Shown here: positions 55,096 to 57,368 of the stretch, one piece after another
Layout of the letters: the number at the start of each line of letters is the position of its first letter
Position numbering within the stretch: the first letter of the stretch is position 1
Source: an uncultured Bdellovibrionales bacterium
GTDB taxonomy: Bacteria > Myxococcota > XYA12-FULL-58-9 > CAYXVF01
Assembly (NCBI GenBank): GCA_964468125.1
Contig: CAYXVF010000004.1
Coordinates: 26,605-90,604 of the forward strand
Direction of reading: 5' to 3'
DNA: 64,000 nt
The notes under the pieces: generated by a model
Database searches by the model: none
What the model was told of the DNA's origin: nothing
What the model saw: only the letters and a program-made list of their open reading frames with translations
Position numbers and translations under genes: made by a program

Positions 55096-55371
55096 CTAAG
55101 CCCGGAAAACACTCCCGAGCGCGGTCTGAACCTCAACATGTGCTTCCCTAAACACTGATTGTCGAACTGGCTTGGCATTCCCGATGAATCCGCGGGTCCA
55201 GCTCCTAGGAAGGAGCCGCTGGACCACCACGTAGGGGAATACGAACGTCATCGCGATCACGTAGTAGAGCGATGACTCCACGATGTCGCCGAGCTTCCGG
55301 CGCGGAACGTGGAACAACGGGGCCTCTAGAGTGGCCCGACGCCGACTGACTGGGAGCGTGACTGCTTTCAT
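55096..55371 (-). CDS. pufQ: PufQ-like small membrane protein (position and architecture only).
   Basis: 91-aa ORF between bchY/Z and pufB. Single TM segment LYYVIAMTFVFPYVVV and a ...SVFRA C-terminus reminiscent of PufQ. Start overlaps the upstream stop (ATGA). Confidence 0.4.
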   Translation of the reverse strand: MKAVTLPVSRRRATLEAPLFHVPRRKLGDIVESSLYYVIAMTFVFPYVVVQRLLPRSWTRGFIGNAKPVRQSVFREAHVEVQTALGSVFRA

Positions 55372-57368
55372 GTGAGGCCTCCTCCTGCTTGGGCCACTGC
55401 GGACCCGTTCATTCGCTTCTTGGATTTACGCGCGGCCACTCGGGCCACGGTGACGCGACTGTCACCCTGGAGCTTCGCGTCGTGCTCAATCGTGTCGCGC
55501 AACGTCTTCGCCGCGGAGATGCGCGTGAGGACCGGCACCTCGCTCACCATCTCGTCGAGGAGCGCTTCGCAGAGCGCGCGACCATACTCGCGGTACATCA
55601 CGACGTTTACGTCGGCGTCCACGAGACGAGGCACCTGCGCGAGATGCGAACCCAGGGCGAAGACCATGTTGATCTCCGCCCCGATGCCTTCGACAAGGCG
55701 ACGGATCTCGGCGAGGTCACTCGGCATGTTGAAGTTGGAACCGGTCACCACCACGCTCGGCAGTGATGGGTCCAAAGCTTCGTGTGCGCGACGCATCGCG
55801 CCTTCGGTCCCCTTCTTCCCGAGCTCTTCCTCGGACGCGACGCCGGCCTTTTCGCCTGGCGCGTTCTTGGCGAGGCGAGCGCGTTTCGCTTTTTTACGGT
55901 CTGCCAATTGCTTCTTGCGAAACTTCTCGTCGTCTTTTGGAACGTCTTCCCAGATCCCCGAGGCATGCCCCGTGCCGACGCCGGAGAAGAAATCGTTCAT
56001 CGCGTCAAAGCGCGGCTTGCTCGCCATCGCTGCGTTCACGACCTGCGCGAGGGAGCCAGCCCCCGCGGGCCCCATCAGCGGGCGCGCGGAAATGAGGTTG
56101 GTGAAGTAGAGCGCGGGGGTGGCGCTTTCCTTCGCGGCCTGTACCACCGGCGTGGTTCCCACAACCAAATCCGGCTCGAATTCCTTCATCGCAGCGAGGT
56201 CCTGCTCGAGCGATGCACGGTACTGCACCTGCACGCCACGGGCCTTCAGCCACTCACTGTCGGCAGAAGACCACTCGGTCTTTGCACAGGCCGTCCCGAC
56301 GTAACGCACGTCCGCACCGCTCTCGATCAACAGGCGAGCAACGAGCAGCTCAGAGCCTTCGTAGCCGGACAACGTGATCCGCCCTTTGATGGGCATCCCA
56401 GCGAGCGCACCCTGGATCGCGGGCAGGATCGCGTTCTGCGCGGCGGCTATTTTCTCCGCGGAAACCCCCGCCTGCTGCCCCACGGCCTTCAGCCATTCGG
56501 CGGTGCCGTCGTGGCCCACCGGAGCAGAACCCACGATCGGCCGACCGGCAGCCGCAAACTCACGGAAGGTAGCGACATAGAACGGGTGGATCGCAGCCGC
56601 GACGGTGCAATCGAGCGCGGCATATTGCTCACGCCATTCGCGCGTGGGCACCACGGGCCCGGCGGCGAGCTCCATCGGGGCGAGCATGCGTCCGATGGTG
56701 ATGGGATCGACCGGGAACATTTCACCGACCAGCGCGACCGTCGGCAGCTTCGCATGTCCCTCGCGCGGCGCTTGGACGGGCCCAGCCTCCGCCTCTCTTC
56801 GAGCGTAGGCGAGCATGGCGCCGGCGAGCACGTCCTTGGCTTCCGCATGGGTCGGCACACCAAAGCCCGGGACGTCGATCCCGACGATTCGCACGCCATT
56901 GATCGTCTTCGGAAGCAGGCGCAGCGGCACCCCCGATGCGGTGGGAACACAGAGGTTGGTCACCACGAGCGCGTCGTACTTCTCGGGGTCCGCGAGGTCG
57001 TGAACCGCGTCGCGAATGTCTTCGAAGAGCTTGCCGGTAACCAGAGTCTCCGAATCAAACGGCACGTAGCCGACGGTGCGCCGAGCGCCATAGAAGTGCG
57101 ACGTGAAGGTGAGGCCGTAGACACAGCAGGCCGAGCCCGAAAGGACCGTCGCCGTACGACGCATGCGCAATCCGACGCGCAGGGAGCCAAAGGCGGGGCA
57201 CATGCTCTGCGGCTGGTCGTGGGGGCCAACAGGATAGTCCGCGGCGTAGCGATCGAGCACATCGCTCTTGCCCGCTGCGGCGGCGGCTTCACGCAGCTTC
57301 TCTCGCCCACCATGGCAGCCACTTTCTGTGGCGTTCTTTGCCTCGACGCTCGTCACTTTCGTTCTCAC
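55368..57368 (-). CDS. bchY: Chlorophyllide a reductase subunit Y, fused in frame to a short remnant of subunit Z.
   Basis: N-terminus GCHGG...[19 protein letters not shown]...[12 protein letters not shown] matches BchY. The last ~130 aa carry BchZ-like blocks [25 protein letters not shown] and [25 protein letters not shown]. There is no separate bchZ: only about 2.0 kb is available for bchY plus bchZ, where about 3.0 kb is expected. Confidence 0.7.
   Translation of the reverse strand: [666 protein letters not shown]

Follow-up and report, generated by a model that had tools for sequence, protein, structure and literature searches.

A probable bchZ pseudogene fused in frame to bchY within a locally decayed photosynthesis gene cluster of an uncultured Myxococcota lineage

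Phototrophy genes of the Myxococcota were first reported in 2023, all of them from uncultured genomes and in clusters that were intact. Li et al. (2023; PMC10576062) describe 32 Myxococcota metagenome-assembled genomes (MAGs), all with pufLM, and the bchYZ genes of one of these are active in Rhodobacter; a decaying cluster is not reported there. Chlorophyllide a oxidoreductase (COR) is made of BchX2 and a (BchY/BchZ)2 core, and its activity has been reconstituted using purified BchX plus BchY-BchZ protein (PMC7242693). Loss of phototrophy genes in aerobic anoxygenic phototrophs is known from the comparison of Citromicrobium JLT1363 with JL354 (Zheng et al. 2012, PMC3338782). The subject of the present analysis is the bchY-bchZ region of a 64-kb window (the whole stretch of DNA that was analysed), which is part of a 107,928-bp MAG contig. 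The gene order of the locus resembles the crtF-bchCXYZ-pufQBALMC order of the Myxococcota clusters, as in MAG GCA_039026095.1; however, bchZ, pufL and pufM are broken here, and the cluster is split by hyp genes and a kinase gene. The bchZ gene is very probably a pseudogene remnant lying in a patch of real decay (bchZ, pufL and pufM) in a cluster that is otherwise intact. This decay is local and recent; as gene decay by deletion it is nothing out of the ordinary, but it forms a clear, well-delimited example. As in Citromicrobium, a lineage is losing phototrophy genes that close relatives keep intact; the Citromicrobium loss was deduced from the presence or absence of whole genes, whereas here an intermediate with mapped breakpoints is seen in an otherwise intact cluster. 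The locus is direct evidence, rather than an argument from presence and absence, of ongoing loss of phototrophy within the Myxococcota.

The chimeric open reading frame (ORF) occupies 55368-57368 on the minus strand and encodes 666 amino acids, comprising a BchY body and a 155-residue BchZ tail. The BchY portion (residues 1-511; 55836-57368, minus strand) is identified by Pfam, by NCBIfam and by identity to the nearest BchY (P0001), to which chimera residues 9-521 are 84.6% identical by blastp. Pfam Oxidored_nitro spans chimera residues 57-447, and the NCBIfam equivalog TIGR02015 (BchY) is matched along its full length (profile positions 1-422 of 422) at 709.5 bits against a cut-off of 425.15. 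All three BchY Cys motifs are kept: SMCPAF at residues 55-60, SACCVYG at 79-85 and NLCVPT at 138-143. The body corresponds to residues 1-506 of the 523 of the nearest BchY; only the last ~17 residues, which are Lys/Ala-rich and poorly conserved, are lost. An alternative GTG start at 57356 gives a 662-residue product, which is present in the protein collection. Gene callers give the 662- or 666-residue chimera as an ordinary BchY-family protein, and surveys that use bchY or bchX as markers would score the organism as a phototroph. In the protein collection the 662-residue form is clustered under an unrelated 57-residue representative (MLNELGITVAYVS...), a quirk of database clustering.

The tail matches the nearest BchZ by blastp with E values of 6e-30 and 1e-23, and on the BchZ profile TIGR02014, where the cut-off is 529, the chimera reaches 127.8 bits spread over three stretches; judged by its sequence, the tail is a BchZ remnant and not a member of the BchZ family. 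Like BchZ, it has three blocks that are colinear with the family, highly similar to it and placed between bchY and pufQ; unlike BchZ, it lacks a start codon, Cys35 and the residues that correspond in alignments to the greater part of the catalytic body of BchB. Block A (BchZ residues 63-95; 55737-55835, minus strand) is placed by blastp and blastn colinearity, and block B (BchZ residues 168-226; 55560-55736, minus strand) by blastn colinearity and alignment. Block C (BchZ residues 432-493; 55368-55559, minus strand) holds the PCP_red-like C-terminal helices, with a weak PF08369 match in Pfam at chimera residues 606-646, and the native stop; its coding part is 55371-55559, and the native bchZ stop still overlaps the pufQ start (ATGA). 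By hand count the blocks are 76-93% identical to the nearest BchZ. Block B carries a Pro to Ala change (MVFPLG to MVFALG, 55650-55667) at a position where 69 other BchZ sequences all have Pro. The residues lost are 1-62, 96-167 and 227-431, which is 339 of 493 codons (~1,017 nt, 69%), leaving 31% of BchZ. 

The same mapping is obtained at the DNA level from the nearest intact locus, that of a relative (L001; BchY ~86% amino acid and 76% nucleotide identity) in which bchY and a full-length bchZ are separate, overlapping genes followed by pufQBA. By blastn, window 57859-55815 corresponds to L001 1-2038 (bchY), 55834-55738 to 2262-2358 (block A), 55735-55560 to 2577-2752 (block B) and 55569-54663 to 3358-4262 (block C onward). 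Normal variation of BchY as the origin of the tail is ruled out by the BchZ blastp matches together with the colinearity with bchZ DNA; the alignment of the tail to BchZ references, proposed in a preliminary description of this DNA, thereby maps the retained segments and their junctions. That description held that bchZ survives only as in-frame pieces fused to bchY, on which blastp, blastn and TIGR02014 agree, that about 1 kb of the gene is gone, that the junctions are in frame (all three keep the BchZ frame) and that the N-terminal Cys region is absent (residues 1-62, with GPVGC35EN, are deleted); these statements hold. Its figures for the two parts need correction, the BchY body measuring 511 and not ~535 residues and the tail 155 and not ~130; it also counted two BchZ blocks where there are three, the C-terminal 63 residues down to the native bchZ stop having been overlooked.

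The three junctions are found in independent assemblies. A Logan contig from run SRR7048221 (1,419 bp) is 100% identical to window 56091-54673, and one from run SRR7048222 (1,332 bp) is 100% identical to window 55994-54663; each spans all three bchZ junctions. The exact PufQ protein of the window also occurs in two Logan contigs, and a further contig, L089, equals window 54144-53008 at 100% and confirms the nonsense codon in pufM. Read-level validation, which the preliminary description had proposed, was thus obtained in near-equivalent form: the independent per-run assemblies reproduce the junctions exactly. The case for a pseudogene is that disabling lesions are present relative to intact orthologues in three relatives (one at 89% nucleotide identity, L001 at 76% and the Myxococcota MAG), with the junctions reproduced twice.

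At the first junction (J1; 55815-55836, minus strand) bchZ codon 63 (SEEELGK..) follows directly on the bchY 3' end (..AGVA), with an overlap of the blastn blocks at 55834-55815. What is lost comprises the stop of bchY, the start of bchZ and, with Cys35 among them, BchZ residues 1-62, so that a separate bchZ start overlapping the bchY stop is absent here, both signals having been deleted. In relatives the J1 breakpoints lie in the imperfect repeats GGCGTCGCG (G-V-A, in bchY) and GGTCTCGCC (G-L-A, in bchZ), which match at 7 of 9 positions. The second junction (J2; 55735-55738, minus strand) joins BchZ residue 95 (..VVTGS) to residue 168 (NFNMPS..) with the loss of 72 codons; the microhomology in relatives is just ~3 nt (CGG). 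The third (J3; 55560-55569, minus strand) joins ..CEAL226 to L432DEMVSEV.. with the loss of ~205 codons; the blastn blocks overlap at 55569-55560, and the direct repeat GAAGCGCT(C), which codes for E-A-L, is present at both breakpoints in relatives, as seen in alignments to L001, L002 and L087. At the deletion junction in pufM, CGA (~3 nt) is common to the breakpoints in relatives. All of these junctions are seamless, and the breakpoint repeats in intact relatives are 3-9 nt long and partly imperfect. The bchZ junctions were probably made by microhomology-mediated deletion, with short direct repeats as the sites of slippage or end-joining, the mechanism being read from the junction sequences. 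Three separate internal deletions took out 69% of bchZ plus the bchY stop, so that a ribosome starting on bchY would pass through the three surviving BchZ blocks and halt only at the stop that bchZ had originally; the order of the events is one that we infer. Microhomology-mediated (illegitimate) deletion is a known process in bacterial pseudogenes, and the locus resembles those cases in its seamless junctions, its 3-9 nt repeats and the presence of several deletions and point lesions per gene; it differs in that all three bchZ junctions are in frame, leaving a long open chimeric ORF that is called as a protein.

The preserved frame follows from the codon phase of the repeats. In 69 intact bchZ genes, the two members of exact 6- to 9-mer repeats at spacings of 100-800 nt agree in codon phase in 63% (6-mers), 68% (7-mers), 72% (8-mers) and 77% (9-mers) of pairs; for pairs with one member at the bchY 3' end and the other at the bchZ 5' end, the same-phase fraction is 58-77%. 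With this bias the probability of three in-frame junctions is ~0.2-0.45, versus 1/27 if phase were random. The in-frame junctions need no selection because short repeats mostly share codon phase; they arise as a side effect of the way the mutations form and do not indicate function. A role for selection in keeping the frame, whether for translational coupling to pufQ or against polar effects on pufC and on the hyp genes, was weighed and set aside, as pufM downstream contains stops and a frameshift and the phase bias suffices. For genes rich in G and C at third codon positions (GC3), microhomology-mediated deletions are mostly in frame, which is useful when judging pseudogenes generally.

Of the three COR subunits encoded at the locus, only BchX and BchY remain intact. 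BchZ Cys35 aligns with Asp36 of BchB; in the homologous dark-operative protochlorophyllide oxidoreductase this Asp serves as fourth ligand to the [4Fe-4S] cluster between the subunits. Mutagenesis, not structure, has implicated Cys35 as a [4Fe-4S] ligand in COR (PMC13474568). This residue is removed by the first deletion, residues 1-62 being absent, and the third deletion takes out a further ~205 residues, which are alignable with the body of BchB. The tail is not expected to stand in for the BchZ half of the (BchY/BchZ)2 core, so that bacteriochlorophyll a, as predicted from the gene content, cannot be made from this locus.

The neighbouring reaction-centre genes are broken as well. The preliminary description had regarded pufLM as degraded, and comparison with relatives bears this out in detail: five further independent lesions lie in pufL and pufM, making eight with those of bchZ. 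The pufL remnant (54471-54507, minus strand), recognised by comparison with the intact pufL of L085 and L002, retains 12 codons; its start is changed from ATG to CTG (54505-54507), and everything from codon 13 onward is deleted up to the stop codon and the pufM ribosome-binding site, with the junction at 54471/54470. By tblastn no PufL is found in the window. The pufM pseudogene (53760-54455, minus strand) was mapped against relatives, and against L089 for the nonsense codon; it carries a ~7-nt deletion with a frameshift near 54366-54371, a 290-nt deletion (PufM residues ~70-163) at 54261-54263 that happens to restore the frame, and a GAG to TAG nonsense codon at 54015-54017. Full-length ORFs for PufL and PufM of the type II reaction centre are absent from the locus. 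No second bchZ, pufL or pufM is present in the window; the genome-wide search for another bchZ that was proposed earlier is answered for these 64 kb.

Relatives place the deletions in time. In the best 80 bchY loci from 185,579 species genomes, most bchY-bchZ matches run over ~2.9 kb, and the shorter ones stop at the end of the protein match (residue ~603) or at a contig end. The Myxococcota MAG GCA_039026095.1 (locus L002) has a full-length bchZ overlapping bchY, followed by pufQBALMC. In a collection of 5.8 billion sequences no other protein covers the tail end to end: the best query coverage is 80% and most is 26-68%, and the matches listed are at most 287 residues long, the named ones being annotated as partial BchZ. 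The closest relative found is given by Logan contigs L085-L087 from three other runs (SRR28370423, SRR28089850 and SRR28370467); it is 89% identical at the nucleotide level and has an intact bchZ 3' half and an intact pufL 5' end. Its alignment with the window starts exactly at 55568 (J3) and ends exactly at 54462, near the pufL junction; therefore the deletions postdate the split from this relative. The lineage is not in the JGI collection, the metagenome contigs of which have no match to a 38-mer common to the window and the 89% relative, nor to the PufQ protein. Three sequences met in these comparisons are unusual in their own right. P0003, a 969-residue protein on a 737-kb contig of another organism, is a full-length BchY-BchZ fusion whose BchY C-terminus, read out of frame, continues into the start of bchZ; this may represent a natural fusion or an erroneous frameshift, and its 24% identity to the chimera comes from a MAFFT alignment that places BchZ sequences on the BchY body. 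P0006, a BchY of 579 residues, contains a perfect ~60-residue internal tandem duplication (...TVALLG twice), either an assembly artefact or real, and in the BchZ of a Polyangia MAG (L004) the variable loop ahead of residue ~150 contains an insertion rich in His and Lys (SSKNGHKHGHKHDHKHDE).

Constraint was assessed from the number of alignment columns, otherwise invariant across all sequences, at which the window sequence departs. No such column is changed in BchX (0/157), BchY (0/179, with 82 other BchY), BchC (0/51), CrtF (0/24) or CrtD (0/56), whereas the BchZ remnant has 1 change in 31 columns (the Pro to Ala change; p = 0.11) and the PufM remnant 3 in 60 (p = 0.004); pooled, the remnants have 4/91 against 0/467 for the five intact genes (Fisher p = 0.0007). 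The ratio of nonsynonymous to synonymous substitution (dN/dS) is saturated against L001 (dS ~1.7), and the values used are those for block C, pufQ, pufB and pufA. For block C against the 89% relative it is still 0.15; most of the branch was therefore under constraint, and the inactivation is recent. In a comparison of window, L085 and L001 over 55568-54603, unique substitutions number 41 on the window branch and 21 on the sister branch, with 7 versus 2 in pufB and 5 versus 0 in the pufQ-pufB spacer; this asymmetry, which has no genome-wide baseline, could reflect relaxed constraint on the intact puf genes or a faster lineage.

Several observations weigh against a simple history of decay and give the competing explanations their footing. 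An intact bchXYZ-pufQBA segment of related type (BchY 86% at the amino acid and 76% at the nucleotide level) is present in the same run, SRR7048222, and the corresponding L001-type BchY (P0001) and intact BchZ (P0370) are also found on a 23,014-bp NCBI contig; this segment may come from the same MAG, where it would be a true second segment or a relative that was binned with it, or from another MAG in the same study. An intact bchZ or pufLM could also lie beyond the visible 64 kb of the 107.9-kb contig. The genes bchX, bchY and bchC show no relaxed constraint, which is unexpected if bacteriochlorophyll synthesis is long dead, and their conservation fits either a very recent inactivation or the supply of bchZ and pufLM from elsewhere. 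Window 54144-54663, with the pufL junction and the 290-nt pufM junction, lies outside all independent contigs, and the microhomology lengths are estimates, read from relatives rather than from ancestral sequence. It is conceivable, though unlikely, that a second intact bchZ-pufLM set, for example of the L001 type, keeps the organism phototrophic and makes the window copies dispensable: P0001 and P0370 are at hand in the same run and on the NCBI contig, none of the 387 invariant columns of bchX, bchY and bchC is changed, which suggests that the pathway is still selected, and there is a precedent for two reaction-centre gene sets in one genome in Citromicrobium JL354 (PMC3338782). However, a second bchX and bchY would make those of the window dispensable too, yet both are untouched; in addition, the GC3 of bchY (0.77 in the window, 0.70 in L001) and the 76% nucleotide identity better fit another organism of the community or a binning contaminant. 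Comparison of tetranucleotides and GC3 between L001 and the window is weakly informative, the GC3 gap weakly favouring a different organism. A related and rather doubtful idea takes bchX, bchY, bchC and the crt genes to be still under purifying selection, either because the native bchZ-puf part is being replaced by a diverged, horizontally acquired L001-type segment, the enzyme then being assembled from a mixture of old and new subunits, or because BchX and BchY have a role without BchZ. Loss of phototrophy by the whole organism is likewise something that we infer.

The remaining explanations concern how the lesions arose and whether the fusion has a use. That all lesions between 55835 and 53987 were made at once and very recently, for instance by error-prone multi-break repair with template switching, is improbable; such an event would account for the absence of decay in the rest of the cluster, for the crowding of eight lesions in bchZ, pufL and pufM, the window's other photosynthesis genes (~15 kb) having none, and for seamless junctions with microhomology, and it is in line with the roughly twofold excess of unique substitutions on the window branch. 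However, the lesions leave pufQ, pufB and pufA between them undamaged, the point changes are found 70-300 nt away from the junctions and not at them, the branch asymmetry has the limit already given, and sequential neutral decay after a first inactivating change explains the same data. An assembly or binning artefact, in which the metagenome assembler made deletions present in no DNA molecule, is very unlikely because the per-run assemblies reproduce the bchZ junctions exactly, two independent single-run assemblies being identical to the window over 1.3-1.4 kb across all three. Concern on this score comes from the origin of the sequence in a MAG, from the presence in that sample of a related population that shares k-mers with it and from the fact that Logan contigs of the window type and of the L001 type stop at the same place in pufA; yet a de Bruijn graph assembler crosses a junction only with junction k-mers in the reads, and the lesions include point mutations (ATG to CTG, GAG to TAG), one of which is confirmed independently. 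There is scarcely more reason to regard the fused BchY-Z' protein as a working, streamlined subunit with its frame kept by selection. The three in-frame junctions, an ORF that ends at the native stop overlapping pufQ, the 76-93% identity of the blocks and the low dN/dS of block C would all suit it; against these stand the loss of 69% of BchZ including Cys35, the replacement of an invariant Pro, an architecture found in no other sequence and the destruction, in the same operon, of the reaction centre that would use the pigment, while the codon-phase bias predicts in-frame junctions and the low dN/dS stems mostly from the time before the deletions.

The genes around the lesions are intact. The segment crtF-bchC-bchX-chimera-pufQBA-pufLM fragments-pufC extends over 52.5-60.8 kb on the minus strand, as defined by ORFs and Pfam. 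The bchX gene (57365-58399, minus strand; likely start 58324) matches Pfam Fer4_NifH, is 89% identical to L002 BchX over its full length and has a stop that overlaps the bchY start. Downstream of the chimera, also on the minus strand, pufQ (55096-55371, 91 residues) matches L002 PufQ along its full length, and pufB (54798-55016) and pufA (54603-54785) have Pfam LHC and full-length matches. The tetrahaem reaction-centre cytochrome gene pufC (52588-53763, minus strand) covers Pfam CytoC_RC positions 6-310 of 310 and aligns to L002 PufC residues 1-370. The PufC of GCA_039026095.1 (L002 15673-17157) is a 494-residue protein with a C-terminal OmpA domain, and that of the window (391 residues) is without OmpA. 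Full-length alignments to the L002 counterparts are obtained for bchD (partial), crtC, crtD, crtF, bchC, bchX, bchY, pufQ, pufB, pufA and pufC.

A second part of the photosynthesis cluster at 35328-41192 on the plus strand, with a B12-binding regulator, ppsR, bchG, lhaA/pucC and bchP, is intact by domain coverage; ~11 kb separate it from pufC. Between the two parts lie one ORF of no assigned function, a PilZ-Ser/Thr kinase gene (42576-43946) and the hydrogenase-maturation genes hypB (45645-46568), hypE (46899-48209) and hypF (50028-52457), which are co-directional with puf-bch; hydrogenase structural genes are not seen in the window. Palindromes of the TGT-N12-ACA form, the PpsR/CrtJ operator type, occur five times in the window, which is chance level; those at 59311-59328, just upstream of bchC, and at 60767-60784, in the divergent crtF/crtD region, sit where PpsR/CrtJ operators are known in purple bacteria. 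Block C contains no TGT-N12-ACA and no sigma-70-like site that could serve as a PpsR site or puf promoter, and Rfam and tRNA scans of the window give no matches.

The source of the DNA is an uncultured, fairly isolated Myxococcota lineage. The best matches of its alanyl-tRNA synthetase after the sequence itself are 73%, 67% and 63% identical and mostly named Myxococcota or Deltaproteobacteria; the best BchY matches include Myxococcota MAGs, and the PilZ-Ser/Thr-kinase genes fit the Myxococcota. The PufQ, PufB, PufC and alanyl-tRNA synthetase of the window are all recorded on one NCBI contig of 107,928 bp. Away from the photosynthesis genes, the minus-strand region at 712-7406 encodes a 1005-residue protein with a sacsin/HSP90-like ATPase N-terminus, a transglutaminase-like core and a weak PADLOC match to the TmtA N-terminal domain; it is followed by ORFs of 511 and 705 residues with no match in Pfam, NCBIfam or PADLOC, and the three may form an uncharacterised module. 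In the region 21291-34910 a set of alternative complex III (act) genes sits immediately upstream of an operon for a caa3-type cytochrome oxidase that includes SCO1/SenC, and these genes indicate an aerobic respiratory chain in the organism.

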